A stretch of DNA of 64,000 nt from Nitrospirota bacterium (GTDB lineage Bacteria > Nitrospirota > UBA9217). The stretch lies in assembly GCA_963740085.1 (NCBI GenBank), contig CAVUCU010000001.1:1248001-1312000 (forward strand), read 5' to 3'. Shown here in pieces: positions 4,080 to 64,000 of this stretch (position 1 is its first letter; the number at the start of each line of letters is the position of its first letter). A model generated the notes under the pieces. It searched no databases, was not told the DNA's origin, and saw only the letters and a list, made by a program, of their open reading frames with translations. Position numbers and translations under genes: made by a program.

Positions 4080-4235
4080 GAGAACCTCCTTCGTTATCGC
4101 GGTTTCCGGAATGGAATCAATGATACTATCCGTCAACACACAATGCGGTGTTATTTTATCACAAACGCTATTTTATAACAAACAATGCGTATTTTTAAAG
4201 GATGATTTAATTGAAAAGTGGTGTATACTATAGCC

Positions 4236-5093
4236 ATGTTCAACCTGCTGACCAAACAGGCTGAGGCTTATAGACGCGACACCTTTCGCTGTGGCAACTG
4301 CAACCGGGATTTTGAAGCCAAGGTCATTACCTGGGTGGACGTCTCTAAAACGCCTCAGGCCAAACAGGCGCTGCTGAAATGGCAGTTCAACCTTCTCCAG
4401 TGCACTCACTGCGGCTTTCGCAACTTCTCCGGCTCACCCTTTTTCTATGAAGACTTTGAGGAGGGGCTTCTGATCGCCGTATTCCCAAGCATCCCGGATA
4501 ATCGGGGAGAAATCGAGAAGGCAATCCGCGCGAAATACGGCTACTACCCGGCGCTCGAATTTTTTTATGATATGACCCAGCTCTGGATGCTGATCTATTT
4601 TCAAGATCACTACCATGCAAACAGAAACCTGCGCACACTGTCCCGCATCGGACGGGGTGAAGAACGGTTGCGAAAGATGCTGCGGTTCCTGAAAGAGGAC
4701 CAACTGATGATCAACATCCGCGAGAAACTCACCGAATCCTTCTTCAACAATGCCGCGAACGACGAACTCGTGGAGGTCCTGGGCCAGGCCGTCTACTCGC
4801 TGGAAGAGATGCTTCCCTGGCCGATGGACAGGCGTTGCTTGTGCGGGGCGGATCTTGCTCATGAGTTCAAGTGCTGCGGCAAACAGGTTAACCTTGCTGA
4901 GCATGAACTACTGCTCTCGCGGCACTACGTCATCTACTGCCCGATCTGCAAAGAATCCCTCTCCGGCGCCTCATGCGCAGAGTGCGGCAGGGTCTACACC
5001 TGGAAACTCGGTACGGTTGGAACATATAAAAATGACGGCGGCACATCCACACGCAAGAACACTGCGGAACGGAAGACGCAGGCGCACCTTTGA
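4236..5093 (+). CDS. CpXC-like zinc-ribbon protein with Cys-rich C-terminus
   Basis: N-terminal CGNC...CTHCG...FFYED pattern; C-terminal CLC, CC, CPIC and CAEC. Confidence 0.6.
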   Translation: MFNLLTKQAEAYRRDTFRCGNCNRDFEAKVITWVDVSKTPQAKQALLKWQFNLLQCTHCGFRNFSGSPFFYEDFEEGLLIAVFPSIPDNRGEIEKAIRAKYGYYPALEFFYDMTQLWMLIYFQDHYHANRNLRTLSRIGRGEERLRKMLRFLKEDQLMINIREKLTESFFNNAANDELVEVLGQAVYSLEEMLPWPMDRRCLCGADLAHEFKCCGKQVNLAEHELLLSRHYVIYCPICKESLSGASCAECGRVYTWKLGTVGTYKNDGGTSTRKNTAERKTQAHL

Positions 5094-5493: not shown

Positions 5494-6831
5494 TTACAAA
5501 ACCGCTGTGGAAAGCGGGCTTGCCTTACTGCCGGTCCCCATCTTGAAATTAAAGATACCCTTAAGATGATACTCTGGCGGTGGGACCAGTGTTGAATCAT
5601 TGTCGGTTAATGTAATATCAAAATCACCAGTTGCCTCGGTTGCCGTTGAACCAGGTGAAAAGGAAATGGTGCCCTGACTCACTTTTTTCAGCGTGGATCT
5701 CTCTCCATTGAAGACAAGGAATATACCGGGGAATTTCTCGTACTGAGAATTGTCTTCAATGGCAAACGTTTTGCCACCGATGCTCGGCATGACACCGTTG
5801 TCCGATTTCTGAATGTCGATCCTGATGACGGTCCTGAAATTTTCATCCCAGACATTTTCCGCAACATTGGCCTGTATTGACCAATACGCATCATTGTTCG
5901 TTGAATAATAGAAATTTGGCTTTACAAGCCCATACTCATCATCAGTGACCGTTAAGTAGTTGATATGGGCCAGATTCTGGTCGACAGTTGCGGCAGTTAT
6001 TGCCGAACTGGTTCCGGTTGTTTCACTTGCCGTTGTACTGCCGGATGAGGCCTGACTGCTTCCGCCTCCGCTGCCGCATGCTGCCAGGAGCGCGACCAGC
6101 ACCGCGGTCATGAGCATCTGTTGAAGGTGTATTCCGTGTTTTATGTGATGGGGCTTGGCATACCCTTCTTCAATGAGCACCTCACCAAGCTTTTTCCGGG
6201 ACCCGGTCTGTTTGAGGAGAGCATCATCAAGTTGTCTGCGCGAGATAGTGCCTGAAGAGACCAGTATCTCCCCTAGCTTAAGCGGGCCGGGCACCGGTTT
6301 GGCATTGCCCTGGTTCTGTTGAAAATCGAGGACGCCGTACAGCTCTCGTTTCGTTAACAGGCCCTGGCGAACCAGAACCTCGCCGAGCTTCTCGCCGCTT
6401 CTCTTTTGATCGGAAATCGCGCGCTCAAGTTGTTCGCTCGTGATTCGTCCTGCCTGAACGAGCAGGTCGCCCAGCAGTCGGCGAACGCCCGCGGCAATCT
6501 TGACCGCGTCCTCGACGCGGTCAAGATGTTCCTGCACAGAAAGTGCTACCTTGATATCCGCAGGATCAATAATATTCATCCTGACCAGTACCTGACCAAG
6601 AAGTTCATTGGTTTTCTTTTGTTCCTCCAACGCGGCTTCGACGTTTTGCCGGGGTAGAAATCCGCCATCAATCAGGATCTGTCCGATGAAGCGCTTATTT
6701 TGTTTTTGTTTCAGCATAGGTAGCTCCTTTGCGTTGCTTACAGCCGCGCTTTGCTTCTTGTACGGAGATTCCGCCATCTTCGTGCCGCTAAAACGTCTGT
6801 CTGCGCGATCTCCATTTTCAGAGTATATCAT
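5494..6831 (-). CDS. Multi-MshEN (c-di-GMP-binding motif) protein fused to an internal lipoprotein signal and an extracytoplasmic domain
   Basis: Six xLGxxLxxxGxxxxxxLxxALxxQ-like repeats, then MLMTAVLVALLAA-C-GSGGG and a Ser/Thr linker. Alternative start 6717 has an AAGGAG RBS. Confidence 0.75.
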   Translation of the reverse strand: MIYSENGDRADRRFSGTKMAESPYKKQSAAVSNAKELPMLKQKQNKRFIGQILIDGGFLPRQNVEAALEEQKKTNELLGQVLVRMNIIDPADIKVALSVQEHLDRVEDAVKIAAGVRRLLGDLLVQAGRITSEQLERAISDQKRSGEKLGEVLVRQGLLTKRELYGVLDFQQNQGNAKPVPGPLKLGEILVSSGTISRRQLDDALLKQTGSRKKLGEVLIEEGYAKPHHIKHGIHLQQMLMTAVLVALLAACGSGGGSSQASSGSTTASETTGTSSAITAATVDQNLAHINYLTVTDDEYGLVKPNFYYSTNNDAYWSIQANVAENVWDENFRTVIRIDIQKSDNGVMPSIGGKTFAIEDNSQYEKFPGIFLVFNGERSTLKKVSQGTISFSPGSTATEATGDFDITLTDNDSTLVPPPEYHLKGIFNFKMGTGSKASPLSTAVL

Positions 6832-6860: not shown

Positions 6861-9800
6861 TCACTGGCCGCTGAACCACTTCACGGCGTCGCGGACGCTC
6901 ACTTGGTCAAACTTCATTCTCATCTTGACAAACGGCCCCTCGCTGGTGAAATCAGCCTTCGAGAAATCGCGGTCTTTAAAACCATTGAAATTGTATCCCA
7001 CACTTATCCAGAGGTTCCTGCCGGCGTTGAACCCGACCGATGCGCCGGTCCCGTATTTTTCCTGGCGCAGGCTTAGGGAGTGGAGCCGCATGCCGCGGAG
7101 ACCAATATCCCACTTCTTCGTGACATCGAAACGGCCCTCCAGCCCGACCAGGTCAGTGTATCCCCGATAATCGTTCTCATCGATCCGTTCCTGGACGTAT
7201 TTTGAAGCGTACTGCAAAGAAACCTGGGTCCTGATAGTCGTCTTGATGTTCGCAACAAGGTTGTTGACAAAGCGCTTGTTGTCGTCGTAGGTTGTTATCC
7301 CTCCATGCTGCTCTGACTGTATCAGATCCAGCCGGTCCAGGATGATGACGCGGGTGTCGAAGGGGCGGTGCACAAGGCTCAGACGCAGATCGCTACTGGC
7401 TTTCTCCTCCCCGGCAAGGATGTTGCTCCGGAACGTCTGCAGTCCCAGCGCAAGAGCGAGTCCCTCCCGCACCTCGCCGTTCGCACCCATGAACAAACCG
7501 AACTTGCGTTCGGAATCTGAATCGCGGTTTTCCACCCTCGCGGTCCATGACCATTTTTCCTGACGATATCCTACGCCAAGAGAAGTCGCTGTAAAGTCCT
7601 CGCTGCTCCCCGATGCGGGAGGAACGTTGGTGTTGACAGAATAGGTACCCGTGTTATGCAGCGTCTGGCTTCGATCCAGACCGCCATCCACGCTCCACTG
7701 CTTCGTGATCTGCCAGGACTGCTTCAGTCCAGTGGTGGAGAAAAGCCGCACGCCGTTCTCGGTCGACTGCTGTTCCATGGAGGACCCGATCTGGCCGCCG
7801 GTCCACGGCGATGTCCTGATCCCGATGCGCGTGGTCTCGGTGTCTATCGTGGAACCATTCGTCCACTCCTGGTCGGCGAAGAACGTTGATTTCTCATTGA
7901 GCTTGTAGTCAGCCCCGACGGTCGTCCTCGTCGGGAAATCGACGTTGTTGTTCGCTCCGATGGACTGATCGCGACTGATCCGGACCGCAGTCTTGTCGGT
8001 CACCTGGGCCCTTATGCCGGAGAAGAGCTGGTCGGACCGTTGCGTCTCGCCGAAGCTCTGTGTCCCAGCAGTGCTCAGGGTGTCATCAGCCTGGCGCAAA
8101 CCCGCCGTCACCGTATACCGTCCCGCAGTGTAATTGCTTCGCACCTCGGCCATGTCGCGCACCGCGCCGGTGGATAAATTGTTCTGCTCGAACACCTCTC
8201 CGCCAATGGTCCACAGTTTGTTGATCCGATAATTGAGGTCCGCTCCGATCTTCCGGGTGCCAGTCTCGCTGCCACTCTGCTGACCAAGCCCGAACCCGCC
8301 TTGCTGTTCCCGAACGTAAGCCTTACCCTCAGCTTTTTCCGAACGGTGCTGCAACTCCGCGAGAAATGCGTCACCTTGGCTCGTGACGCCCGCCAGGTCC
8401 GTCTTTGTCGTGGCGGCCTCCGCCCGGAGCAGGTCATACTCACCGAGCTTGACCTTCGCATCGACCCCTTCGAGGTTGCCCGATCCTCCCACCTGGCCCT
8501 CATGAACGTGGGAGGCGCCGACCTCTAAGCGGCTGTCGAGGAACCGCGCGGCAGCGCGGCCGCCATAGTTGTATTTCGCATCCTCGTCGTCAAAAGATTC
8601 ATATTCCGCAACAATGAAAATTGGATTGAAATTCCCGTCACGGCTGTATACCGGCATCTTGAAGAAAATGGTACCGGCATCGTAGTCGATAGTGTAGTCC
8701 AGGTTGTTTGTCAGCCGCTGGCTCGAAAGAATGACCTCGCTCTTGAACCGGTCCCGGGTCTCGATCGTGATCGTTTCTGAATTGAGCACGATATTCTTCC
8801 GTGACAGGTGGTAAAGTCCCGAGGTACCGTCGCCAGAGTACTCGTCCCGCACGTGGGCCTGGTTTGTATCCGCCAGAAAAACCGTGTATTCGTAATCCTT
8901 GGTCTTCATCTCCGACTTGAACCCGGTGAAGTTCCGGTTGTACCGTGACAGCTCGGTGATGGAAAGACCAGCATTAAAATCACCGAATAGGGCATAGAAC
9001 TGGTCGCGCTCCAGTTTGATGTAGATGCGCTTAGCGCTCGCCGCATCGTTGCCCTGAAGCGTACCATCGCCGTACAGGGTGTAGTACTTGTTCGGATCGA
9101 TGGTCTGATACAGGCTCGGCTGGTCAGTGCTGTCTGTTTTTTTACTGTCATAGGCCAGCGTGAGAAGCCACTCTCCCTTGATCCTGCCCTTGGCATAGAA
9201 GGCCAGGCGGTCCTCTTCGTAGAACTTGTCATCGCCTCCACCAGAAGTGAAGGTCTCCATGTTGCCCTTTACGGTATCGTATCCCACCGTGCCTTCGGCA
9301 AGGCCGACGAGGACCCAGTCCCGGTCCCCGGGTTTCAGCCACGTGCGGATTTCCTCAAATCGTTCAGCGTCAAGTTGCACACGAACAATCGCTTCTCCTG
9401 TCTGCGTTGTCGGAACAAGCTCGATCATCGCCACGCCGTCCTCGCCGACAAGATACCGGTATCTATCAGTATTCAGTGCAATGAGCGGCGATTGTTGAAG
9501 CTTATCAGCGCTCTGCTTGGGGATATACGGCGGATCAAGAAAATAATCGGCCCGCACTCCCTCCCTGGCGGGATGTCCATCCTTATCCAAGAGTTGTATG
9601 GCAAGAATTATGGGGGTTTTGCCATCCGCAATGAGCTTCGATCTCTCGGGCAACAGTATAGCCTTTGCCGGCGGTCCTGAATAGTGTACGGTCCGCTGCA
9701 GCCGCTTGACCTCGAAATCGGCGCCATCAGAGAGAACGAGTTCGAATTTATTGTCTCCCTCCTGTAAATGTATCCCGCGCCAGAAGCTGATGGCCACAGT

Positions 9801-12800
9801 GCCGTCAGATTTTTTGATCATTCCTTCATAATGAAGGAGATCCACCGCGTCGCCATTCAAAAAGAGTTTCAGTTTCTGGCTCGGATCGTGCTTTATAGCA
9901 ATTCTCAGACTCGCAATAGCAGGGTGATAGCCATCAACAGGCCAGAGCCACTCCAACCCCGGCTCTGCCTTTTCAACCCAGGCGGCATCGTAGTCCGGCA
10001 TGGTCTTGCCGTCGCCGATAGGCGTCAGGGACTCTGATTGCGGGTTCTCTAGCCAGATCTCGCCCTCGGACAAGCCCGTAATTGAAACGGACTTCACGCC
10101 ACTCGTTTCTTTGTCGTTGCGTACATAGTCCCAAGCGGAATCCTTGCGAGTGTCGACTCTGAACTCAACACGGCGGTTCAGCGCCCGTCCCTCTGCGGTC
10201 TTATTGGTCGCAACCGGTTCGTCAGGTCCCTTCCCGACGATCATGATCTGATCCGGGGCGAGCCGGAGTGTCTCGGCAATGACCTTGGCGACCGTCCTGG
10301 CGCGGCCTCGCGACAGCACGTAATTATCCGGGAACTCCTTGCTTGCCCTTGGGCGAATACGGTTGGAATCGGTATGACCGGTAACGGTAATATGCTCGAT
10401 ATTTCTTGATTTCATTTGTTCAATGATCTTCGATATTTCTTTCTGATCGCTCGAAGACAGGTCCGCCTTCAGCGAGGCGAACTTGGGATGGAATATGGCA
10501 TCGGGTTCGCTCATCTGACGCTTTAATTTGTAGCGGACAAGGTTCGTGTCAGCCACGGGCGTCTTCGCTCCTTGTGCTGCCGGAGTGTCGAAAACCAGGA
10601 ACGACTTCGTGGGCAGGTTTCCCTCAGCGCCTTGCGCCGGCACTGTCGCAGAGAACATGAGGGAACCCTCCCACCCGGCAGGCCGATCGCCCAAACGGTA
10701 GGTCAGGACGCCGTCGCTGAGGCCAGGATCAGGGACGCTGCCGTCAGCCAGAAAGCTGCTTCCCGGTGAGTATGTTACGCCGTCCGGCATCATTACGATC
10801 AGTCGGAGGTTTCGTACGGAGACCGATCCCACATGCAGTTTGGCTGAATAGGCGATGGTGTACTGGCAGTTCGCGTCGGGGAGACTGCAATTCTCATTCA
10901 CGAACGGCACCATGGCCGTATAGTCGTTATGGTCTTTCGCGTCCGGCCTCGAAGTCCCGGTCTGGTTCGTGGCCAGGGAATTCGTCTTCACTTCGCCGAA
11001 GCAATGCTCGCCGAAGATACACGTTTGGGCTGTAGCAAGGGAAGCCTCCGGCTCCCCTGCATCAACATGGTTAATCAAATCGCTCCTGGTCGTGACCAGG
11101 GATGTCTGCAGCTCAAGGCCGACTTCGCCGGTCTGTTTCGCTTTCGGAGGACGGAGCGCCAGATGGAAATCGGCCCTCCACAAGGAACCACCTTGCAAAT
11201 CCACGAACTGCGAAAATGACCTGCCCGCGAAACGCGTGTTATCCTCGCACTGCGCGGGCTCGTATTCCTCGGGCACCGTGACGGTATCAAGCTGCACCAC
11301 ATGAGTCCCCGGGAGAACAGCCGCGAAATGATACATCCCATTCTTGTCGGTTATGACATAGGATCCGTCCTCAAGGAAGATACGGACCCCTGCAATACCG
11401 TGCCCGTCTTTACCGCAGCCTTCAAGGATCCGGCCGACAATGGTCGTCCTGCTCAGAAAGAGATCCTCGGTCACCAGGACCGTAGCCGTCGCAATGTTGG
11501 ATACCACGCCGGAGGAGCCGTTCGCCACAGCCGTGTTCAAGGCCTTTCCAAGGTTAGCGCCGGCGCCCACTTCGGCCACGTAGGTGATGTCCGCTTTTCC
11601 CGCTGCGATGAGATTGCCGACCGTAAAGGTGACGCTCCGGCCGTCCTCGGAGATGACAGGCTCGGTCGCGGGAACACTGTTCAGGCGCACTGACCCTTTC
11701 CGGTACCGGAAACCGGCCGGCAGCCGGTCAGTAATGGTCACCCCCGGCGCCGGTGCGCTCTCGTCGATGTTTTCCACCGTAAGTTGATAGGGAACAAAGT
11801 CACCAATTGCCGCCGAATCCTTGCCTGCGGATTTGATGAGATAGAGCCGGGTGCTCAACGGGTCAATGGGAATATCGATATGGATCGCCGGCCCGGCGTT
11901 CACCAGGAACTCCTCACTGCGCGAGCCGGGCTCGGCAATGGCAAAAGGGGCTCCCGGCAGGGCCTGCAAAACACGGGTCGCGACGTTCGAAGGAGACCGA
12001 AAGCCTGAGGGCGGCAGGACGTCAAGGCGATAGCGGCCCGGGCTGATAAAGGGGAACCGGTATCCGCCTGGTGACATGGAGTACGCCCTGCCACTGCTGT
12101 CCACTGCCGTGCCACCAGTGATGAGGTTGGACGGAAAAGTCGAGATGCCGTCATCACCGTATACGGTCGCGGGATTACCCGTAGCGGTGTTCACCAGGGT
12201 GACGATCGCCCCGTCGACCGGCTGACCAGTCGTGCTGTTAAACAAAACGCCATAGGGATCGACCAGCGCAGTCGTTGTGTGGGAATCCGTCGGGTCCGCC
12301 GGGTCCACGTAGAGCGCTGTAATATGCGAATCGTTCACGAGATTCAGAAGACCGTTGTTGTCAATCTTTTGATCGGAGCTGGATTGTATGACCCCCATAA
12401 AGACGCCGGTGTTGGGTCCAGTCTCGGTCAGCTTGAGCACTTCTGTGTCCCCGGTCTTGTCGTCATGAACTGTCACCACGACGGTTTCCGCGACCGCGGG
12501 ATCGTTATTCTGGTCGCCGTCAGTCAATCGGATGAAGACCGGCTCGCCGGTGTGATACTGCGTCGGCGAAATGAGCGACAGCGGCTTGGCCAGATCGAGC
12601 CTTGCGGACGATCCTGCCGGCATCGGCGCGTCAAGAGGAACAAACGGTCCGGCCAGGTTTCCGCTGGGGCTATAGGATGTTGAATGAACGACAACAGTCT
12701 GTGCGCCCAGCGCATCAGGCGCGTACTGGAGGAATTCTAAGACCGCGGTAGTCCGCTGGACCATGGACGTCACTGACGCCGCAGGAGACGTTACGGTCAC

Positions 12801-13046
12801 CGGACTTCCCGCAGGCCCGTTTGTATACGTCGCGGTTGCGACATTGGTGATGATGGTGCCGGATGGCGTGATGGACCAGCCGACGGATGAGAACAGGATG
12901 ATGAAAAGGAATGATAACAGAGAAATAACTAGAGAAGAAAAAATTGGGGCCGCTTCAGCGAACGGGCGCAACGCGACCGTGCCTTCATCCTCATGGGTGG
13001 AGGTACGGTCGATGTGCGCGTCATGTGTGCCTAAGCGGTCCCTCAT
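6861..13046 (-). CDS. Giant outer-membrane protein with DUF11 and OmpA-like domains and a predicted C-terminal beta-barrel; putative pilus anchor or usher
   Basis: Signal peptide; complete DUF11 domain (LIK...ITDRLP...LNTA); OmpA motif GHTDS...LSRGRA...NRRVEF; long C-terminal run of amphipathic beta-strands. Confidence 0.8.
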   Translation of the reverse strand: MRDRLGTHDAHIDRTSTHEDEGTVALRPFAEAAPIFSSLVISLLSFLFIILFSSVGWSITPSGTIITNVATATYTNGPAGSPVTVTSPAASVTSMVQRTTAVLEFLQYAPDALGAQTVVVHSTSYSPSGNLAGPFVPLDAPMPAGSSARLDLAKPLSLISPTQYHTGEPVFIRLTDGDQNNDPAVAETVVVTVHDDKTGDTEVLKLTETGPNTGVFMGVIQSSSDQKIDNNGLLNLVNDSHITALYVDPADPTDSHTTTALVDPYGVLFNSTTGQPVDGAIVTLVNTATGNPATVYGDDGISTFPSNLITGGTAVDSSGRAYSMSPGGYRFPFISPGRYRLDVLPPSGFRSPSNVATRVLQALPGAPFAIAEPGSRSEEFLVNAGPAIHIDIPIDPLSTRLYLIKSAGKDSAAIGDFVPYQLTVENIDESAPAPGVTITDRLPAGFRYRKGSVRLNSVPATEPVISEDGRSVTFTVGNLIAAGKADITYVAEVGAGANLGKALNTAVANGSSGVVSNIATATVLVTEDLFLSRTTIVGRILEGCGKDGHGIAGVRIFLEDGSYVITDKNGMYHFAAVLPGTHVVQLDTVTVPEEYEPAQCEDNTRFAGRSFSQFVDLQGGSLWRADFHLALRPPKAKQTGEVGLELQTSLVTTRSDLINHVDAGEPEASLATAQTCIFGEHCFGEVKTNSLATNQTGTSRPDAKDHNDYTAMVPFVNENCSLPDANCQYTIAYSAKLHVGSVSVRNLRLIVMMPDGVTYSPGSSFLADGSVPDPGLSDGVLTYRLGDRPAGWEGSLMFSATVPAQGAEGNLPTKSFLVFDTPAAQGAKTPVADTNLVRYKLKRQMSEPDAIFHPKFASLKADLSSSDQKEISKIIEQMKSRNIEHITVTGHTDSNRIRPRASKEFPDNYVLSRGRARTVAKVIAETLRLAPDQIMIVGKGPDEPVATNKTAEGRALNRRVEFRVDTRKDSAWDYVRNDKETSGVKSVSITGLSEGEIWLENPQSESLTPIGDGKTMPDYDAAWVEKAEPGLEWLWPVDGYHPAIASLRIAIKHDPSQKLKLFLNGDAVDLLHYEGMIKKSDGTVAISFWRGIHLQEGDNKFELVLSDGADFEVKRLQRTVHYSGPPAKAILLPERSKLIADGKTPIILAIQLLDKDGHPAREGVRADYFLDPPYIPKQSADKLQQSPLIALNTDRYRYLVGEDGVAMIELVPTTQTGEAIVRVQLDAERFEEIRTWLKPGDRDWVLVGLAEGTVGYDTVKGNMETFTSGGGDDKFYEEDRLAFYAKGRIKGEWLLTLAYDSKKTDSTDQPSLYQTIDPNKYYTLYGDGTLQGNDAASAKRIYIKLERDQFYALFGDFNAGLSITELSRYNRNFTGFKSEMKTKDYEYTVFLADTNQAHVRDEYSGDGTSGLYHLSRKNIVLNSETITIETRDRFKSEVILSSQRLTNNLDYTIDYDAGTIFFKMPVYSRDGNFNPIFIVAEYESFDDEDAKYNYGGRAAARFLDSRLEVGASHVHEGQVGGSGNLEGVDAKVKLGEYDLLRAEAATTKTDLAGVTSQGDAFLAELQHRSEKAEGKAYVREQQGGFGLGQQSGSETGTRKIGADLNYRINKLWTIGGEVFEQNNLSTGAVRDMAEVRSNYTAGRYTVTAGLRQADDTLSTAGTQSFGETQRSDQLFSGIRAQVTDKTAVRISRDQSIGANNNVDFPTRTTVGADYKLNEKSTFFADQEWTNGSTIDTETTRIGIRTSPWTGGQIGSSMEQQSTENGVRLFSTTGLKQSWQITKQWSVDGGLDRSQTLHNTGTYSVNTNVPPASGSSEDFTATSLGVGYRQEKWSWTARVENRDSDSERKFGLFMGANGEVREGLALALGLQTFRSNILAGEEKASSDLRLSLVHRPFDTRVIILDRLDLIQSEQHGGITTYDDNKRFVNNLVANIKTTIRTQVSLQYASKYVQERIDENDYRGYTDLVGLEGRFDVTKKWDIGLRGMRLHSLSLRQEKYGTGASVGFNAGRNLWISVGYNFNGFKDRDFSKADFTSEGPFVKMRMKFDQVSVRDAVKWFSGQ

Positions 13047-13099
13047 ACAGTTCGATCAATTTCCCCGCCCTTCATGATGACGGGGAAGGTCATGTCTCC

Positions 13100-14200
13100 T
13101 TACTGGACAACAACCTGATACTTGATTACGGCGGAATTTCCTTGCGCGACCGTCAGGCCGGAAACCGTTACTATGTTTGTAGTAAAATCAGCGCCGTCAG
13201 CATCGCCGGTGTTCGTCTTGCAAACATTGTTCACTACGATACCGGACCCTCCGGCGCAAGGGTTGGAGGGGGCAACACCATCATCGTATTGGGTCCTGAA
13301 TGCGATATTTCCTGCCGAGATCATGGCATTGAGGTTGTCAGTAATTGCTACATTCGACGCATCAGCACCACCCGCGGCGTTTGTTACTGTCACGGTGTAC
13401 GTGATCACTGCTCCGGGTATCGCTTTGGGGCTCGCAAACAAGTTTACTGGATCCCAATACACCGTGGCCGTCTTGCTCACGGTCAAGCCCGCGGCAGTAA
13501 TGGTAAAGGTGCCACTTGCGGAGTGTTTCCCGTCACGCGCCACGTCGCTGGCAGCGCTCCCTGCTGCATCTCCGAATATTGTCATTACACAGATTGAGAT
13601 TGGCAGCCGTTTGTGTCCCGAGCTGTCTCATGTGGATGCGGTCAAGGTCCCCGCGTCTACGGCTGTCGCCAGAAGGTCGTAACCCGCGATTGAACCATTT
13701 GTCGCGGTTGCCGGTATATCACCGACGATCAGTACGGTAATGCTTGCGCCTGACGCGATGTCACCGAATGTGCCGGCAGTAGCGTACAGTGTATCGCCGG
13801 CGTCCCATTTGCCGTCATTGTTGTTATCGCGATAAATATTCGGAGTGGTCAACGTCCAGGTGTTCGTCGCCTTCGATACGGGTGACAGGGCAAAGCGCAT
13901 GGCCGTATTGCTCATATTCGAGACGAGGAACTGGATCGCCTGGAAGGTTGAACTCGGTGCGCTGGTCACATCGCTTTGTTTCGTAACAGTCAAATAGATC
14001 ACTCTGTCAACCACAAAGGTGACGGTGTTCCCCGGCACCGCGGTTTGCGGTACCGTGCCGACAGTATAATTCACTGTCGCCTGATTCGAGATACTGACTC
14101 CCGCGGCCGTATTCGCCGCCTGCGCGAACTGCGGGACCGCCACGGCAATCGCCACAAACAGCAGAATTGCCGCTATCTTATACATACTTTGCTTTATCAT
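13100..14200 (-). CDS. DUF11 secreted protein, putative major pilin; interrupted by an in-frame TGA at 13628-13630, probably a sequencing artefact
   Basis: ORFs 13628-14200 and 13100-13585 share a frame and together align end to end with paralog 14902-15936; strong AGGAGG RBS. Confidence 0.75.
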
Positions 14201-14386
14201 TGTTTCCTCCTAGTTTTTAATTAATTACGTTATTTAAATTGTGTTCCCTTTTTGTTTGCAGCCTGTTTATATCTCTTTTCACCTCCTAAGAATCATTCGC
14301 ATAGTGCACCTCCGCTCTTAGGTCCTTGAAAATCAGCATTTGTTCATCCATAATCTTATCCTCCAAATAAATAATTTAGAATGCGT

Positions 14387-14890
14387 CTATTTAATCCTTG
14401 CCTTGAATGAAACACTACCTGTACCACCAGCGGGGAGTGGCTTGGTCAGGGTCCATCTAATACCGGTGTAGTCTTCCGCCCCGGCCTGGCGCACCATTCC
14501 CTTCGCGTTTTTGACCATCAGTTTCTCCGGTGCGCTGTAGGTCTTCCCGCCGTCTGTTGAAAACTCGATGCGGGTGTTGCTCCCTTCTACGCTGTTGTCG
14601 AGATAGGTCATATTCTTGTCAATAGGATTCGTGATCACGACATCGGTGGCGGGCTGCTTGCCGGTGTTGGTATAGTGCGTCGTGAAAACCACCGTGTCTC
14701 CCGGCACCGTCGCCGCCGCTTTGGCGACATCGACCCGCTTAACGACCTTCTCGCCCTTTTCATTTCTTCCCGCAACCTCTACTTCCGCAACGGACTTGAG
14801 CGCTATGGCACTTTTCTGCTGTGTCCAAGCGGCCATCGGCGCCAGCAACACCAGCGCCAAAACTACCTGTAATATTCTTTGCATTATCAT
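14387..14890 (-). CDS. Single DUF11-like domain secreted protein; putative chaperone
   Basis: Signal peptide; PGDTVVFTTHYTNTG...VVITNPI...VSFKARIK. Confidence 0.7.
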   Translation of the reverse strand: MIMQRILQVVLALVLLAPMAAWTQQKSAIALKSVAEVEVAGRNEKGEKVVKRVDVAKAAATVPGDTVVFTTHYTNTGKQPATDVVITNPIDKNMTYLDNSVEGSNTRIEFSTDGGKTYSAPEKLMVKNAKGMVRQAGAEDYTGIRWTLTKPLPAGGTGSVSFKARIK

Positions 14891-14901
14891 CTCCCCCTTT
14901 T

Positions 14902-15936
14902 TTATTTGATCTTAACTTCAAAAGTTATCGTTTGTATCGGCGACGCGCTCGTCAGATTTCCGAGCTTCACGGTCACAGTATTCGGTGTCGTCACCCCCAC
15001 GTCCCCGGCGTCGGTGTCGGCGATATCAGTAAGGGCTGCATTGTTCAGCCGGAGTGAATTGGCGATATACACCGTGTTCAACGGCAGCGGGTCGCTGATC
15101 ACCACGTTGTTCGCTGTGCCTCCCCCCGATGTGGCCGCAACAATCGCGTACCGGAGCGTCGCCCCCGGGAGGGGCAGGCCTCCGCCCCATTGGTCAAGTA
15201 TTGTAACGGTCTTGCTTAGGCTCACGTTCAATGCGGCAACGGATATTATGTTGAAAGCGCCGCTCGCCGAGTGCTTTCCGTCCCGCGCTCCGTCGCCGGC
15301 AACGCTTCCCGCGATGTCCAGGAACACCGTGTCGATACCCGATGTATTGGGCCCCGCGGTCTGCGTGGAAACATTCAAGGTTCCGGCATCGACCGCTGTC
15401 GCCACCAGGTCATATAGCGCTGATTGGCCGATCGTCAGACCCGCGGGCGCGTCCGCGACGATCAATACCGTGACCGATGAGTTTGATACAAGGTCCCCGA
15501 ACGTGCTTGCGTCGCTGTACAGGGTGTCTCCCGCGTCCCAGGTGCCGCTGTTGTTATTGTCTCGAAAGATTCGGACATTGTTCATGGTCCATGTGTTCGT
15601 GGCCTTCGATACGGCCGAGAAAGCGAAGCGCAGGGTCGTATTGCTCGTATTGGAGACGAGAAACGACAGGGCTACGTTGCTGGAGGTCGGCGCGGTATTC
15701 ACATCCGAGTTCTTGGTCACAACCATGTTGATCGCCCGGTCTACCATGAAGGAATTCCCGGCCGTCGCAGTATGGTTCACGCCGCCGCTGAAAAAACTGA
15801 CTGAGACGGTGTTTGTGATGACCATCCCGGCAGGTGTGCCCGCAGCCCGGGCATTACCCGCTGCAAAAAAGAACCCGGCAAGGAATACGATGATTCCCCA
15901 GCATGCCGCGTAATATATTTTTTTTCTGTTTTGCAT
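14902..15936 (-). CDS. DUF11 secreted protein; putative minor or adaptor pilin
   Basis: Signal peptide; mature N-terminus AGTPAGMVITNTV; C-terminal LSK...PGATLRY...ISDPLP. Confidence 0.75.
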   Translation of the reverse strand: MQNRKKIYYAACWGIIVFLAGFFFAAGNARAAGTPAGMVITNTVSVSFFSGGVNHTATAGNSFMVDRAINMVVTKNSDVNTAPTSSNVALSFLVSNTSNTTLRFAFSAVSKATNTWTMNNVRIFRDNNNSGTWDAGDTLYSDASTFGDLVSNSSVTVLIVADAPAGLTIGQSALYDLVATAVDAGTLNVSTQTAGPNTSGIDTVFLDIAGSVAGDGARDGKHSASGAFNIISVAALNVSLSKTVTILDQWGGGLPLPGATLRYAIVAATSGGGTANNVVISDPLPLNTVYIANSLRLNNAALTDIADTDAGDVGVTTPNTVTVKLGNLTSASPIQTITFEVKIK

Positions 15937-15990
15937 AGTCGTATTCGTTCAGCCTTGTCCTTCACCGGCCGGGACAATGCCTTCAGTGAC

Positions 15991-18900
15991 TTAGTTGATC
16001 GATACCTTAAACTTCACGGTAAAGCTTGCGCCGCCTCCGTTCAGCGTCCCGCTGGGTTTAATGCGCACCCCTTTTACGAGAGGATCGTAACCGATGGTCG
16101 TAGGGGGATAGACGTACGGCGGACCGCCGCCGGGTTGGTATGAATAGGAAACCGCGTTCGCATAGGTCCACGGCGTCGTCAGGCCGCAGCCACTGCACGA
16201 GAAGGTCACGGCGCTGCCGGCGGTATCAACGTACATGGTCATATTGGCAGGGATAACATCCGTGATGGCGATCGAGTCCGCGTCCGCCACGCCGCTGCCG
16301 TTGTTGATCACCTGTATGGTATATTGGACCTCCGCGCCGGGAATCGCCTTTGCGGACGCCGATACGCCGTTGATGGGATCAGAAATGACCGAAGACGATT
16401 TCACAACCATAAGAGACGGCAAAAGCGATACGTTGAACGTACCGACGCCTGTGTGAGAAACCGTGCCTTCGGTACCCTCCGGAGCCGTTACGGAAACGGT
16501 CCAGTTTCCGGAAGGCGCAGGCGCCGTGAGCGGGAAAGCGTATTCGAACGTTTTGGTCGCGACACCCGAGTCCGCGACCTGGGGCATGGCCACAGCGTTG
16601 ATAACGGTCACGTTGCCCGGGTCCTTGACGGTGATCATCGGCTGCGTCGTCGCGTTGTTGCTCGCGTTGATATCGAAGCTCCCGAAGGGGTCGCTCACGA
16701 CTGCCCGCAGGTAGACAGTGCCGGTGGTAAATGATGCGGGTATGGTCACTAAGGGATAGGCCGTGCTGTATGCAGTGACGCTGTTCACATTTATGACGGT
16801 CGCCGAAGGCAGATCGACATACGATCGGTTCCCGCCGTTTATCGGATACACCGTCAGGGCGCGACTGATGCCGGTGTTCGTAATGGTGAGGGTCCATTTG
16901 TTCCCCTGAGCGCAGGTCTGTGGCGGCGAGTAGGGCAAGTTGAACGTCTGAAGGTACACCGTACCTCCGGCGGCAAAGGCAATACTCTTCGTCTGAGTAA
17001 GGCTGATTGCTCCACAGGTGAGATTAACCCTTACGTTTCCGGTCCTGCCGTTTGTACAAGACATATAGAGGTTTACCGGAACATTATTTGAATTTGGATC
17101 GAGGGTCATGGGTAACTGCATAGCAACATCTTGTGCCCATATCTGAGATGAAGTTGCAGCGCCAATCGTGATAGTGCTGTTATTACCCGAGATGGATCGT
17201 GATATCGGCCCGGGCGCTCCTCCGCCTGCTCCATAGAGGTATAGCTGCTTGAGGCCGGTGACGGGGACCTGCGACTGGGAGACGGTGATCGCAGGCGCCG
17301 CTGGTGTGGCACCCGTCCCCGCGGGGTTCGTGATAGTGGCGGTGTTGTTGATAAGGGTACCAATTGCGGCCCCCCCTGCGATCGTCGTGGATACGACGAT
17401 TGCGGCGGTCCCGTTGGCAGGAACCAAGATGTTGGACGCCGTAAGCACTTGCCCCACGATAGTACATGTCGCACCCGCAGGACAACTTATGACCGAAAGA
17501 TTTGTCAGTGTCGCCTGGAACGTGTCCGTCACCGAGACACCGGAGACTGCTGCACCGCCGGTCTCGTTCAGCGTGATCGTATACGGTATAACGTCGCCCG
17601 GATTCTGGTCCCCACCGTTCGTATCCGTCCAAGTCTTTGTTGAGGTGGAGAGATTGGAGTTAACCGGAATGTTCACGGTAACGCTATCATTGTTGGAGTT
17701 GTAGTCCGTGATGGAACCCGGGATGACGAGGCTTGCGGTGTTGCTGAGCAGGCTGGGCGCCGGTGCGCTTACCGTACCCGTTATCGTATAGGTCACATAC
17801 CCGTACCGGGGAAGGTTGGCGGTGGTGTTGATGTTGTTCCCGCTCCCTGAGGCAGCGCCGCAGGTTGCACCTCCTGATCCCGCGCAGGTCCAGGCAACGC
17901 CGGTTATGGCCGCCGGCACGGTGTCTTGGATCCCGACTCCGGTCGCTGTCACGTTGTTGGGACCGGTATTACTTGCGATAACGGTATATCGGACAGTGTC
18001 CCCCGCTGACGCGGTCGTCGTCGAACCGCTCGTCACGTCCAAGAATGTCTTGGTGATGGCGAGGTCGATTGCGGTTGTCGTGTTCTGGTTGCTCACCAGG
18101 AGGTTGCGGATCTCATGGTAGTTCGTGGAGCCGCCGGTGCTGGCGGCGTAGCCGATCATGAGCTTCTGGGCTGTCGAGATCGCGGGGAGCGCCTGGTTCG
18201 TGATCATCTGCGTATAGACAAGCGGGGAGCCGTAGCCGAACGCAACCCAGACATTAGCGACCGGGTTTGGCGCCGGGCTGATCTGTATACGCACCTTGCG
18301 GTAGCTCACACCGGTCTGGGAAGGCCTGGGTGATCCGTTGTACCACAGTGAGCCGTTGTTGGCAGAGGTGGCTATCCAGGGATAAGAATTTGTGTTCGAC
18401 GTTTGTCCGATGGCGCCCCCGCCGAAACCGACGACGGAGCCGCGAATTGTCACGGTGTTGGGTCGTTGTGAAGTGCCATTGTAGCGTCCTTCACAGCCAT
18501 AGGCAAAGTTACCGAATTCATCGACGCCGATTCCCACATAGCCGCCGCTGATTCCCGGAACACTCGGGTTAACCGGACTGCACGCAGCAGTAGACAGTTT
18601 CTGTGCATAACCCAGGGAGCCGCCGAAGGCGCCTATGTTGAAGGGACTTGCCCCACCATCGAACAGGTAGACGCTATAGCCGTCTGCGCCGTTCCCGCCC
18701 CAAGTGGCGTAATCAAACTCGATCAGGAGCCCGGCGCTCAGGTCAAACGTGGTGGTGTTATAGGCAAAACCGGTCTGGTTACCTGTGGCGTTGGTCAGGC
18801 GCAGCCATCCCTGTCCTGCCGGATCAATGGCGCCATTTCCGGTCAGAACAGCGGAGCTGGGATTTCCGCCCAAGATCCAGCCCGTACTGTTCGTGTCGGT

Positions 18901-19116
18901 CATCGGCGCATTGATGATGATCGAGGCGGAGGCGTTTACGGCAAAACAGACCGCAATCACCGTTGCCAGGACGAATGAGCAAAGTATGGATCCAGACTGC
19001 CGGAAATAGGTATTCCTGCAAGGAGCTGAGACCTTTCCCTGTGGCAAAGCTTTCTTTGTTCCGATAAAGTTCATCTCACGTTGTCCCGAATAATCTCCCG
19101 CTGATCTTTTACTCAT
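15991..19116 (-). CDS. L-type lectin plus DUF11 repeat adhesin; putative pilus tip
   Basis: WLRLT...GADG...GGSLGY...GVDEFGNF...AASTGG legume-lectin-like motifs, followed by three DUF11 domains. Confidence 0.75.
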   Translation of the reverse strand: MSKRSAGDYSGQREMNFIGTKKALPQGKVSAPCRNTYFRQSGSILCSFVLATVIAVCFAVNASASIIINAPMTDTNSTGWILGGNPSSAVLTGNGAIDPAGQGWLRLTNATGNQTGFAYNTTTFDLSAGLLIEFDYATWGGNGADGYSVYLFDGGASPFNIGAFGGSLGYAQKLSTAACSPVNPSVPGISGGYVGIGVDEFGNFAYGCEGRYNGTSQRPNTVTIRGSVVGFGGGAIGQTSNTNSYPWIATSANNGSLWYNGSPRPSQTGVSYRKVRIQISPAPNPVANVWVAFGYGSPLVYTQMITNQALPAISTAQKLMIGYAASTGGSTNYHEIRNLLVSNQNTTTAIDLAITKTFLDVTSGSTTTASAGDTVRYTVIASNTGPNNVTATGVGIQDTVPAAITGVAWTCAGSGGATCGAASGSGNNINTTANLPRYGYVTYTITGTVSAPAPSLLSNTASLVIPGSITDYNSNNDSVTVNIPVNSNLSTSTKTWTDTNGGDQNPGDVIPYTITLNETGGAAVSGVSVTDTFQATLTNLSVISCPAGATCTIVGQVLTASNILVPANGTAAIVVSTTIAGGAAIGTLINNTATITNPAGTGATPAAPAITVSQSQVPVTGLKQLYLYGAGGGAPGPISRSISGNNSTITIGAATSSQIWAQDVAMQLPMTLDPNSNNVPVNLYMSCTNGRTGNVRVNLTCGAISLTQTKSIAFAAGGTVYLQTFNLPYSPPQTCAQGNKWTLTITNTGISRALTVYPINGGNRSYVDLPSATVINVNSVTAYSTAYPLVTIPASFTTGTVYLRAVVSDPFGSFDINASNNATTQPMITVKDPGNVTVINAVAMPQVADSGVATKTFEYAFPLTAPAPSGNWTVSVTAPEGTEGTVSHTGVGTFNVSLLPSLMVVKSSSVISDPINGVSASAKAIPGAEVQYTIQVINNGSGVADADSIAITDVIPANMTMYVDTAGSAVTFSCSGCGLTTPWTYANAVSYSYQPGGGPPYVYPPTTIGYDPLVKGVRIKPSGTLNGGGASFTVKFKVSIN

Positions 19117-37394: not shown

Positions 37395-37470
37395 GGGCGG
37401 ATAGCTCAGCTGGGAGAGCACAGCCCTTACAAGGCTGGGGTCACAGGTTCGATCCCTGTTCCGCCCACCA
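37395..37470 (+). tRNA. tRNA-Val(TAC)
   Basis: Cloverleaf; anticodon loop CTTACAA; GGTTCGA T-loop; CCA end. Confidence 0.95.
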
Positions 37471-37543: not shown

Positions 37544-37620
<77 letters not shown>

Positions 37621-45561: not shown

Positions 45562-47467
45562 ATGACTGCTGAAAAAATGGAATTCAAGACCGAAGTTAAA
45601 GAGCTGCTGGACCTGATGATCCACTCCCTCTATTCTCACAAGGAGATCTTCCTGCGGGAGCTGATCTCGAATGCATCTGACGCGATAGACAAGGCCCGCT
45701 TCGAATCGCTCACGAACAAGGACATCCTGGCAAATACGGGCGAATGGAAGATCAAGATCATCGTCGACAAGGCTGCTGGCACGCTGACGGTCAGCGACAA
45801 CGGCATCGGCATGACCCATGACGAGGTCATCGCGGAGCTCGGGACCATCGCACACTCCGGCTCAAAGGATTTTCTGCGGGCCCTCCAGAACAAGGCCCTG
45901 AAGGACACGCCCGAGCTCATCGGGCAATTCGGCGTCGGTTTCTATTCATCCTTCATGGTCGCCGACAAGGTCACGGTACTGACCCGGAAGGCGACTGAGC
46001 AGACAAAAAAGGCGACCAAATGGGAATCCACTGCAGACGGTTCGTTCATCATCGACGAAGCGGAAAAGGAGCGCGGCGGCACCGATGTGATCCTTCATCT
46101 CAAGGTTGAAGACAAAAATTACCTTGACGAATGGGAGATCACGGCAGGTCGTCAGAAAATACTCCGATTATATCGCTCATCCCGTGGTCATGGACATTGA
46201 ACGGGAAAAGGAAGACCCGGCGGACAAGAATAAAAGGGTCAAGGTCACCGAAGAGGAGACCATGAACGCCGGAAAGGCCATCTGGCTCAAGGACCAGTCG
46301 GAAATAACGGCCGAGGAATACAACGATTTCTACAAGCACATCTCCCATGATTTCGGCGAACCGGCAAAGGTCATCCATTACCGCGCCGAGGGCACCTCGG
46401 AGTTCACTGCGCTTCTCTATATCCCTGCGAAGGCCCCCTACGGGATCCTGTACAAGGACTACAAGATCGGCCCGACCCTGTATGTCAAACGCGTGCAGAT
46501 CATGGACCATTGCGAACAGCTCATTCCCGAGTACCTGCGTTTTGTCAAGGGCGTCGTCGACTCGTCGGACCTTCCGCTGAACGTATCGCGCGAGATCCTG
46601 CAGTCCAACAAACATGTCGAGGTCATCAAGAAGAACATCACCAGGAAAGTGCTCGATACCCTGGGGGACATGAAGAAAAACGCTTATGACGCTTATCTGG
46701 AATTCCACAAGGAGTTCGGAAGGATCCTGAAAGAAGGCATTCATTTCGATTTTTCCAAAAAGGAGCAAGTCGCCGATCTCTTGCTGTTCTCTTCCACCAA
46801 GACCGAACCGGGCAAGTATACGACCTTCGATGATTATGTGAAGAACATGCCGATCGCACAGGGAGAGATCTACTACATCACCGGCAGGCCGGATGAGAAT
46901 GTCCTGCAGTCGCCCTATCTCGAGGCATTCCGCGAAAAGGGCTACGAAGTATTGATCATGACCGACGATATCGATGATTTCATCATGCTCGATCTTAAGG
47001 AATACAAGGGCAAGAAGATAAAATCGGTCATCAAAGGCGATATCAACCTTGACAAGTCCAGCGACGCGGAAAAGGAACGGTCGAAGGAGAAATTCGGAAA
47101 GCTCCTCGGCATGATAAAAGAGCAATTAAAGACCGACATAAAGGATGTGCGCCTGTCCGGCAGGCTCAAGGATTCGGCTTGCTGCCTTGTTGCCGATGAA
47201 GGCGGGCTCGACCCCCAGATGGAGAAACTGCTCAAATCCATGGGACAGGATGTGCCGTCAGACAAAAGGATACTGGAGATCAATCCATCGAACCAGGTCT
47301 TTGAGGTCATGAACGCCATGATCGAAAAAGGCGGCAATGAACAGCTCTTGAAAGAATATATCGACCTGCTGTATAATCAGGCACTCCTGCTCGAAGGTTC
47401 GAAACTCAAGGACCCCGCAGCTTTTACAAAGTCCGTAGCAAAGCTAATGTCGGAAAACGTGAAGTAG
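45562..47467 (+). CDS. htpG: Hsp90 chaperone HtpG; frameshift near 46141
   Basis: [26 protein letters not shown] and LPLNVSRE motifs; removing one base at 46141 restores [12 protein letters not shown]. Confidence 0.9.
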
Positions 47468-58176: not shown

Positions 58177-59872
58177 ATGGAAGTAAGCCCTTATGCAGGA
58201 AAACTTGCCGAACCAGTGATGCTGGTCAACGTGCCCAAGCTTGTCACGGCCTACTATACGAATGTGCCCGATCCTGAGGTCGCTGAACAACGGGTTGCGT
58301 TCGGCACCTCAGGACACCGCGGTTCTTCGCTCGAAAAGGCCTTCAACGAGTGGCATATCCTTGCCATTACGCAGGCCATTTGTCTGCACCGCAAGATGCA
58401 GAAGATAGAGGGTCCCCTCTTTCTCGGAATAGACACCCACGCGCTCTCGGTCCCTGCCTTTGCCAGTGCACTGGAGGTCCTGGCGGCCAACAAGATGGAT
58501 GTCATGATCGCGGAAAGGGATGAATATACACCGACCCCCGTGGTCTCTCACGCGATTCTCACTTACAACCGCGGCCGCAGGACGGGACTTGCCGACGGCA
58601 TCGTGATCACCCCCTCGCACAACCCGCCTGACAGCGGCGGCTTCAAATACAACCCTCCGAACGGCGGGCCGGCTGACCCTCAGGTGACGAGCTGGATCGA
58701 GGCGAAGGCGAATGAGTTGATCAAAGACGGCCTCAGAGAGGTGAAAAGGATTCCCTTCGAGAAAGCGCTTCGCGCAGACACGACGCACCGGCATGACTAC
58801 CTCGATGCGTATGTAAACGATCTGGGCAACGTGATCGACATGGAGGCCATTCGCGGCTCGAAGATCAGCCTTGGCGTGGACCCGCTCGGCGGGGCCGGAG
58901 TACACTACTGGGGGCCCATTATCGAGCGGTACGGCTTGAATCTCACGGTCGTGAATGACGCCGTTGATCCGACATTTCGTTTCATGACACTTGATTGGGA
59001 CGGCAAGATCCGAATGGACCCCTCTTCACCCTATGCGATGCAGAAACTGATCGGTCTGAAGGACCGTTTCGATATCGCCTTCGCCTGCGACACCGATGCT
59101 GACCGGCACGGGATCGTCACCGAGAAGCACAGGCCTGCTTCCGCCCAATCACTATCTTTCTGTCGCCATCTTTTACCTGTTCCAGCACCGGCCGAAATGG
59201 CCCAGGGAGGCGGCAGTGGGAAAGACCGTGGTGAGCAGCCGGATGATCGATCTCGTTGCTGCGAAGCTTGGCCGGAAACTCTACGAAGTGCCTGTCGGTT
59301 TCAAGTGGTTTGTCGACGGCCTGCTCAACGGATCTCTCGGGTTTGTCGGCGAGGAGAGCGCGGGCGCATCTTTTCTCCGTCTCGACGGCACGGTATGGAC
59401 GACGGACAAAGATGGAATCGTCCCTGCCCTGCTTTCTGCCGAGATCACGGCACGGATGGGCCGTGACCCCGGCGAGATCTACCGTGAGCTTACGCGCGAT
59501 TTCGGCGAGCCGGTCTACGACCGGGTCGAGGCGCCTGCAACCCCGGAGCAGAAAGAGGCGCTGAAAAGACTTTCTCCAAACCGGATTAAATCCACCGATC
59601 TTGCCGGGGAGAAGATCCAGACCATCCTTGCCCAGGCACCGGGCAATAACGAGCCCATTGGTGGTCTAAAGGTCATTGCACAGAACGGATGGTTCGCGGC
59701 TCGGCCGTCAGGGACCGAAGATATCTACAAGATCTACGCGGAGAGCTTCCGTGGAAAGGAGCACCTGCGCCGCATCCTGGTGGAAGCGCAGACGATCGTC
59801 AACGAGGCACTGACATCGGCGCCACAGCGGTCTGGATTTGCAAACAAATTAAATTCGGAGGGAAAATCATGA
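58177..59872 (+). CDS. pgm: Phosphoglucomutase; frameshift near 59121
   Basis: [14 protein letters not shown] and DTDADRH in one frame; GEESAG and RPSGTE in the next. Confidence 0.9.
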
Positions 59873-63280: not shown

Positions 63281-64000
63281 ATGACCACGAGGAAACCGGA
63301 TGACCAGCTCGAACCGACCGTGTTCGTTATTTTTGGCGGCGCCGGTGACCTGACCTGGCGGAAACTCGTGCCGGCCCTGTTTGACCTCTCCCAGGACCGC
63401 AGTATGCCCGCTGATTTTTCGGTCATCGCGGTGGATCGTGTTGACCTGAGCGACGAAAAGCTGCGCAGGCGTCTCCACGACGGCGTCAAAAAGTTCTCGC
63501 GCCAGGGAACAGTGAAAAACGGCGAATGGAGGGAGTTTGCCAGGCATATCCACTACCAGCAGGGCGATTTCAAGAAGCTGCGGACGTATACGGCCCTGGG
63601 CGAAAATGCGCGAAGCTGGAAAAGGAATGGGGCGCCAAGACCCACCGCGTCTTTTACATGGCCACACCGCCGGGCATGTTCGGCGAGATCCCGAAATACC
63701 TCGGCAAGGCCGGACTGGCGCGTGACCGGGAATGTGCGCGGATCGTGGTCGAAAAACCGATCGGCTATGACCTGGAATCCGCCCGCGCCCTGAATGCCGT
63801 CCTCTCTGCTCATTTCGAGGAATCCCAGATCTTTCGCATCGACCATTATCTGGGCAAGGAAACGGTGCAGAACATTCTGGCCTTCCGCTTTGCCAATCCG
63901 CTCTTCGAGCCGATCTGGAACCGGCGTTACGTGGACTATGTTACCATCACCGCGGCTGAAGAGGTGGGCGTAGGACATCGAGGCGGTTATTACGACCACG
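63281..64000 (+). CDS. zwf: Second glucose-6-phosphate dehydrogenase; frameshift near 63605, truncated by the window end
   Basis: [11 protein letters not shown], then in the shifted frame FYMATPP, EKPIG and [13 protein letters not shown]. Confidence 0.88.

Follow-up and report, generated by a model that had tools for sequence, protein, structure and literature searches.

Here we describe a gene of the window, the 64,000-nucleotide stretch of DNA that was analysed, whose 407-residue product (P0001; 5494..6717, minus strand) carries three MshEN_N domains, which belong to a class of receptor domains for the bacterial biofilm messenger c-di-GMP, directly in front of an internal signal peptide and its cargo. 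We show that this architecture is conserved among homologues and reused on unrelated cargos, with cleavage sites of two types, lipobox or A-x-A. We propose that residues 1 to about 215 form a portable leader through which export or maturation of the cargo depends on c-di-GMP, a reading to which we give an even chance. Its more specific form, in which the MshEN domains fold round their own signal peptide as a cage and c-di-GMP frees or locks the signal, is put forward tentatively.

Anatomy of the leader-cargo protein

The full open frame extends on the minus strand from 6831 to 5494, and ATG 6831, in frame upstream, would give 38 additional residues. Good ribosome-binding sites precede both candidate starts, ATG 6831 (duplex energy -8.5 kcal/mol) and ATG 6717 (-7.9 kcal/mol, from AAGGAG at 6724..6729, minus strand, 6 nt before the ATG). 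Since 103 of 120 aligned homologues have their N-terminus as at ATG 6717, we number residues from this family-conserved start. These 120 are the query and the top 119 homologues, 47-88% identical to it across 95-100% of the length; the search as a whole (5.8 billion proteins, 8000 candidates) gave 355 homologues at E<=0.001.

An earlier note on this DNA had described six MshEN motifs, the MLMTAVLVALLAAC stretch, a Cys codon (6078-6076), a Gly/Ser/Thr linker and a beta-rich domain, and all are present. The six 24-residue motifs begin at residues 10, 39, 81, 110, 147 and 176, with a 5-residue linker within each pair, which is the 24+5+24 spacing described for MshEN_N motif pairs (PMC5013675, available part). 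They compose three complete domains of 53 residues apiece on the minus strand: domain 1 (motifs 1 and 2, residues 10-62, 6532..6690), domain 2 (motifs 3 and 4, residues 81-133, 6319..6477) and domain 3 (motifs 5 and 6, residues 147-199, 6121..6279), whose last helix is also the basic n-region of the signal. A family-specific linker helix with the conserved A75-A76-G77-x-R79 (6478..6531, minus strand) separates domains 1 and 2; A75, A76, G77, R79 and F132 are the conserved leader residues that lie outside the motif consensus.

The assignment of these domains rests on motif spacing and on profile matches, the NCBIfam model NF053729 scoring 151.8 bits (cut-off 38) over three stretches, and likeness to MshE reaches a sequence E of 3.5e-12. 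The models of domain 1 (residues 8-65; rmsd 1.3, Z 6.3) and domain 3 (residues 145-203; rmsd 2.1, Z 8.0) superpose on c-di-GMP-bound MshE (5HTL). The ligand-contact positions of a motif are Leu2, Gly3, Leu17, Leu21 and Gln24. Gly3 is found in 115/115 sequences in all six motifs and Gln24 in 114-115 of 115, motif positions 17 and 21 are hydrophobic in 113-115 of 115, and Gln199, of the last motif, is invariant in 130/130. The protein itself matches the strict consensus at 6-10 of 11 positions per motif, motif 6 at only 6; the ligand-contact rule takes R, K or L as first residue (PMC11731258, available part). By motif and modelled fold, the three domains are MshEN_N members. Matches to ATPase, glycosyltransferase and MshEN_C models were confined to the motif region and far under the cut-offs (25.5 against 675.65; 75.2 against 537), and judged by its sequence the protein is not MshE, PilB or NfrB.

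Gln199 is followed by Gln-Met, 12 uncharged residues and Cys214-Gly. The hydrophobic h-region (residues 202-213; 6079..6114, minus strand) forms one continuous helix with motif 6 and ends in the lipobox L-A-A-C(214)-G (6073..6087, minus strand), without Asp at +2 and with Cys and Gly in 120/120 homologues. Among 111 representatives the h-region begins exactly three residues past the last motif Gln in every one, Gln+3 being hydrophobic in all and Leu in 101, counts for which the last motif was anchored by a regex pattern alone and which are partly built in, because the search profile contained the h-region. The Gln-to-Cys spacing among the 120 is 14 (63 sequences), 18 (2), 19 (9) or 21 (46), so that, with Gln+3 fixed, variation is confined to the distal end of the signal. 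Residues L202, A205, L207 and L211, which are not confined to a single face of the helix, are conserved across cargos.

Positions +1 and +2 after the Gln are mostly Arg or Lys, and in 102 of the 117 family representatives the n-region carries a net charge of at least +1, while in none is it negative; in the leader-cargo protein it is weakly basic (Lys193 and two His). The view that a basic n-region is missing is thus correct for a protein begun at the internal Met, but not for the whole protein, in which the motif 6 helix supplies the basic residues. The best 19-mer hydrophobicity of the segment has a median of 1.77 (110 members), against 2.06 for 1621 polytopic segments and 2.02 for the lipoprotein signals of this genome. 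In the 95 members that have no lipobox and at least 60 residues following, an A-x-A lies 16-30 residues past the Gln in 62, compared to 10 in a control window further down.

Among the 2879 ORFs of the genome, only three with a single hydrophobic segment have an h-region and lipobox more than 100 residues into the open frame: the leader-cargo ORF and two that resemble ordinary signal peptides, with a Met 21-25 residues upstream. This rarity, together with the 151.8 bits of NF053729, argues that the architecture is not due to chance. As a control of the hydrophobic filter, 2 of 10 motif-bearing ORFs of this genome passed, the leader-cargo gene and one borderline unrelated ORF, as did 5 of 48 at other loci, where each time the stretch was the next motif. 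The lipobox Cys is residue 214 and lies outside the N-terminal placement of Sec/SPII signals (Cys about 15-35 residues from the start); as its signal is internal, the protein is not a canonical prolipoprotein. The genome encodes LspA, two Lgt, two LolA and RseP and has 24 GGDEF matches. We infer from the sequence that the segment behaves like a signal peptide, with predicted lipidation by Lgt and cleavage by LspA.

AlphaFold, run on residues 1-216 with 130 diverse sequences, gave a pLDDT of 94.7 (96-98 in the signal helix) and a pTM of 0.88, and a single helix, residues 189-215, runs from motif 6 into the h-region in both models. The pTM implies that the three domains and the signal helix hold a fixed arrangement in the model, where leader and signal helix are one rigid unit. 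In a structure search with this model, 27 of 50 rows were small helical bundles whose alignment starts at residues 46-53 and ends at residues 210-216 (53-85 residues aligned, Z 4.1-5.4), which shows no homology and is a geometric hint only. The hint is that the signal helix may pack with the last helix of domain 1, as read from alignment ranges rather than from coordinates. Prediction of a complex between residues 1-140 and 186-216 scored 0.01, the fold of the partner being uncertain, and mutual-information covariation over 130 sequences, too shallow a set, gave no usable contact to the h-region. Foldseek with the whole model returned no match at E<=0.001.

Beyond the Cys, a Gly/Ser/Thr tether of variable length (5968..6072, minus strand) is disordered (pLDDT <50 at residues 217-250, gappy alignment) and leads to an all-beta domain (5518..5967, minus strand) which matches no Pfam or NCBIfam family above cut-off. 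Its nearest fold is that of the LpqH lipoprotein, but the likeness is weak: searches with the whole model gave Z 6.8 and 6.0 at 6-10% identity, the Z of 6.8 belonging to 4XIN (rmsd 4.0 over 107 aligned residues) and lying within the range of common arrangements, and a Foldseek E of 0.25. Among 13 matches to this cargo, none is clearly a conventional short form with an ordinary signal peptide; they are fragments or leader remnants (P0122, P0123, P0125, P0126).

Genomic context and reuse on other cargos

That the gene closes a putative pilus operon, as the earlier note had it, applies to some loci and not to others. Upstream lies an operon of six genes (6861..19116, minus strand) which encodes a 2061-residue OmpA-containing protein and five smaller secreted-looking proteins, four of them with DUF11 or isopeptide-domain matches. 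In the window, the leader-cargo gene stands behind the giant DUF11/OmpA gene. For this cargo type the same order recurs at 2 of 5 genome loci and, among 25 metagenome loci, at no fewer than 6 (four of these at 57-64% identity). One genome of the same genus has the leader-cargo gene at the same place and no DUF11 operon, and at the same-genus locus L006/L113 the gene directly follows an ABC transporter gene. As the DUF11/OmpA neighbour occurs in only part of the loci, we rejected obligatory membership of this operon and regard it as a recurrent neighbour; the leader-cargo gene has its own ribosome-binding site.

A CpXC-family gene (4218-5093), convergent with the leader-cargo gene, is a conserved neighbour within the genus. 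Our promoter and terminator scan gave weak consensus matches only, no Rfam family matched the window, riboswitches included, except for two tRNA genes (37395-37467 and 37544-37617), and a plasmid collection gave no match. With the queries used, no PapD, usher or SCPU homologue was found in this genome. Three genes of the window, which we take to be HtpG-like (45562-47467), phosphoglucomutase-like (58177-59872) and glucose-6-phosphate-dehydrogenase-like (63281-63999), each appear broken into two frames that overlap. This points to frameshift errors in the assembly, which leave the leader-cargo gene unaffected.

A profile of the leader (residues 7-220), drawn from nine loci, retrieved 81 relatives from genome contigs, of which 80 were kept and 38 loci covered the whole leader. 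Among 1.84 billion representatives it gave 185 at E<=1e-30, and the best 150 of the 185 were used: 125 of these reach the profile end and 117 have a hydrophobic 11-mer directly past the last motif, the other 8 being left out of the cargo counts. Among the matches listed, the cargos cluster into one beta-rich family (66), FN3/Big-type proteins (10), C39 peptidases (6), Sel1-type proteins (5), paired-CxxCH cytochromes (3), the type of this gene (2) and TSP3/dockerin proteins (2), with 9 single cargos such as Big_5, beta-helix and CAP and a remainder too short to cluster. Homologues with MshEN domains, an internal signal and different cargos, which the earlier note had proposed to search for, hence exist in numbers.

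Judged by sequence, the leader precedes at least nine unrelated exported cargos: a chaperone-usher operon protein, FN3/Ig, CAP, cytochrome c, C39 peptidase, Sel1, beta-helix, Big_5 and the beta-domain of this gene. The heme-binding CxxCH cargos require the periplasm, and work outside the cytoplasm is obligatory or usual for the paired-CxxCH cytochrome, FN3/Big, CAP, beta-helix, C39 peptidase, Sel1 and Big_5 types alike. Cleavage sites across cargos are of the lipobox or AxA type, with a lipobox in at least 10 representatives (the search pattern missed P0198), and in FN3 members the domain opens with its first strand directly past the A-x-A site. In a tree of the MshEN part (92 rows), 11 cargo labels need 14 changes, where the minimum is 10 and the shuffled mean 46.7; this is a quick tree with 48 of 88 inner branches unresolved. 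Lipobox and AxA members are intermixed within one supported clade.

The commonest cargo, the beta protein, is accompanied by PapD, usher or SCPU genes at 12 of 16 loci, a count made with query genes drawn from some of those same loci. Of its 17 matches, nine are proteins of 156-164 residues with an ordinary N-terminal signal at the position of the internal one (P0304, P0305, P0307 and P0309-P0314), and four are 200-residue forms with one decayed motif. Because this cargo occurs with an ordinary signal peptide, the leader appears to be an add-on that is not needed to build the cargo. Comparison with SCPU pilins gave an hhalign probability of 1.3%, which does not show the cargo to be a pilin; the nearest named ESM Atlas cluster, SCPU at 0.89, is a lead only.

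Distribution of the leader is patchy, with 25 of 301 sampled genomes of its own phylum and 6 of 301 of the Geomonas phylum (up to 10 candidates scored per genome; the close loci are labelled Nitrospirota). Cultured carriers are Geobacter sp. OR-1, with three copies on different cargos, and Geomonas oryzae. Polysaccharide or exosortase genes stand beside a minority of loci (3 of 9 FN3, 2 of 7 CAP and the single beta-helix locus). Tandem leader genes with different cargos were seen at L041:7974-10281 and L133:154-2538, and two FN3 leader copies on opposite strands at L149.

Several unusual forms were also encountered. In P0223, P0238 and P0276 (1160-1184 residues), Hpt domains and up to seven MshEN_N precede a signal-like segment and TSP3/dockerin repeats; going by their sequences, this is a CheA-like front on an exported tail and possibly a second origin of the same join. 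P0028 (L119:1366-3126), called at 587 residues, continues in frame from an upstream receiver domain ORF into the leader, a fusion that may reflect a lost stop. In the Geomonas oryzae assembly, two copies of a broken leader were found, as at L186:1447-2067, where it ends after motif 5 and overlaps a next gene with its own ordinary signal peptide; the gene ahead is presumably NusG-like. In the same species, two c-di-GMP-I riboswitches (L039:5924-6000 and 7345-7421) lie on genes diverging from a leader-bearing FN3 gene.

Possible modes of action

For a c-di-GMP-responsive leader we envisage the following steps. The three MshEN_N domains would stay cytoplasmic, the last helix of domain 3 doubling as the n-region of the Sec signal, and would bind c-di-GMP (or 3',3'-cGAMP). 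The folded leader would hold the signal helix, and ligand binding would alter whether or when Sec or signal peptidase sees it. Once the domains shift on the ligand, the signal would engage Sec with the leader left inside, the cargo would cross the membrane, and Lgt and LspA, or signal peptidase I in the AxA members, would free it; here the cargo would be lipidated by Lgt, cut by LspA and probably reach the outer membrane. High c-di-GMP most likely promotes maturation, a direction favoured because cargos and neighbours have surface and biofilm functions, and this is the weakest step.

The fixed register and the compact model lend this scheme indirect support. Export from an internal signal is possible while a folded N-terminal domain stays behind, so that gating is not demanded by the anatomy of the leader. 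We also count against it the poor consensus of motif 6, the intact motifs of five cargo-less copies, and P0267, a cytoplasmic REC-LuxR protein behind the signal, which looks like read-through. In the available parts of the PilF literature, GSPII-B is rigid with and without ligand and its two forms show only a slight difference (PMC11731258), a precedent that does not provide for a large opening on ligand binding, and a near-consensus domain may fail to bind, as GSPII-A does (PMC12002112); MshEN_N also binds cGAMP weakly (PMC5013675, available part).

The same cargo-less copies bear on a second reading, constitutive export in which the cleaved leader stays membrane-bound or is released as a c-di-GMP binder, acting as a sink or as a signal that reports synthesis of the surface protein. 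In five independent copies (L006:1150-2148, identical to L113; L114:258-959; L125:3769-4515; L137:2778-3455; L142:866-1627) the cargo is deleted, a real stop following soon past the signal, and leader and signal are intact, with 0-1 motif deviations, where 25 full-length copies average 1.28. Such copies suit a role of the leader itself, as do three sites per chain and the presence of RseP. However, the reverse decay occurs too, with the cargo kept and one degenerate motif left (P0125, P0299-P0302), and both may be ordinary recent deletions. Moreover, a sink does not need the fixed register to the signal, and we consider this reading unlikely. The decayed leaders of P0125 and P0299-P0302 stand behind a shared new N-terminus, in both lipoprotein and chaperone-usher cargo.

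It is also unlikely, in our estimate, that the signal is uncaged and that c-di-GMP shields the precursor from cytoplasmic proteases, or that the leader docks on a partner such as a cyclase or an assembly machine. The conserved A75, A76, G77, R79 and F132 could be a partner surface, and MshEN variants melt about 5 degrees higher in the presence of ligand (PMC5013675, available part). Nevertheless, the loci examined show no partner gene that accompanies the leader, and stability or targeting alone does not explain the sequence conservation of the h-region.

We regard as improbable a single-pass receptor, uncleaved or slowly cleaved, in which the helix stays as a membrane anchor and relays the c-di-GMP state to the periplasmic domain in a LapD-like manner. 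The rigid helix from the ligand site into the membrane segment would suit mechanical coupling, and the segment is 7 residues longer in 46 of 120 homologues. These points are opposed by the invariant Cys-Gly of the lipobox, the enrichment of A-x-A, the low hydrophobicity and a 35-residue tether too floppy to transmit force, as well as by the variety of unrelated cargos and the stand-alone forms with ordinary signal peptides.

A start at the internal Met201 (6115..6117, minus strand), giving an ordinary lipoprotein with the long form incidental, is very improbable. Of the 40 locus ORFs analysed at the DNA level, 28 have a start codon here, and Met is found in 76 of 120 close homologues. Yet none of the 28 has a ribosome-binding site at or below -4 kcal/mol, and any nearby internal start reaches this energy in 4 of 40 loci, against 25 of 32 evaluable N-terminal starts; the value of -3.3 kcal/mol for Met201 bears out the earlier remark that this Met has no good ribosome-binding site. 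As a start it is not conserved, since Met is present in 20 of 117 distant representatives and Lys or Arg replaces it in 76, and the short form here would have no basic n-region at all. The invariant Cys-Gly, set against a Met in only 76 of 120, argues for one conserved protein rather than two.

That two genes were fused by an assembly error or by chance read-through, for which the distant P0267 is the only parallel and the leader-cargo gene itself offers nothing, is refuted by a join kept in 119 full-length homologues from independent datasets and in the cultured Geobacter sp. OR-1 and Geomonas oryzae records, so the fusion is real, as the earlier note held, and neither an error nor an internal start without ribosome-binding site explains it.

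Relation to known systems

Known c-di-GMP effectors act on transcription, riboswitches, enzymes and motors, or on a separate membrane receptor. Signals that are not N-terminal or have long n-regions can work and be cleaved, as in the extended signal regions of autotransporters and the Bradyrhizobium FbcH polyprotein, but to our knowledge none carries a second-messenger-binding domain. Like Sec/SPII and Sec/SPI precursors, the leader has a basic n-region, about 12 hydrophobic residues and a Cys-Gly lipobox or an A-x-A site, followed by a flexible tether or by the first strand of the mature domain. Unlike them, it has its signal 200 residues in, behind a folded ligand-binding unit, and its h-region sequence is conserved across unrelated cargos.

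With MshE of V. cholerae (5HTL) and PilF GSPII of T. thermophilus (6F8L, 8PDK), as described in the available parts of PMC5013675 and PMC11731258, the leader shares the 24+5+24 pairs, the four-helix fold and the Leu/Gly/Gln ligand contacts, and its three copies are as in PilF. It differs in having no MshEN_C, ATPase, glycosyltransferase or other cytoplasmic output, with the export signal directly after the domains. As far as its available entries go, Supplementary Table 4 of PMC5013675 holds no such architecture, the nearest being the MshEN_N-Peptidase_M23 of Acaryochloris, judged by the entry alone.

In the LapD-LapG-LapA system, cytoplasmic c-di-GMP controls a surface adhesin post-translationally (PMC3032545, available part). 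There, the receptor LapD is a membrane protein of its own that works in trans via a periplasmic protease, whereas the leader unites sensor and target in one chain; Pfam and NCBIfam scans found no HAMP, degenerate GGDEF-EAL or LapG partner domains, and the protein has one hydrophobic segment only, where LapD has two. The anti-sigma factor RsiV of B. subtilis, which also has a cytoplasmic N-terminal part, is a precedent for a signal-peptidase site whose exposure is gated by a ligand (PMC6066255, available part). RsiV senses an outside ligand and frees a cytoplasmic sigma factor, while the leader would sense a ligand inside and free an exported domain, and the two share no homology.

In the literature searched, which lay mostly outside subscription journals, MshEN domains ahead of a signal peptide are described nowhere, and the available parts of PMC12943098, PMC8844925 and PMC10118264 mention both terms without describing the leader architecture. 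The parts are known; it is their combination and its reuse that we could not find described.

In conclusion, if a messenger is indeed coupled here to a protein's own export signal, this would be a new output step for c-di-GMP. Nitrospirota, relatives of Geobacter and other bacteria would then have in the leader a means of switching adhesins, pilus parts, cytochromes and envelope peptidases after translation, and it might find use as a modular secretion tag or reporter gated by c-di-GMP. A caged signal, if true, would be a self-contained, transferable switch, able to place any Sec substrate under second-messenger control at the stage of export or signal-peptidase cleavage.
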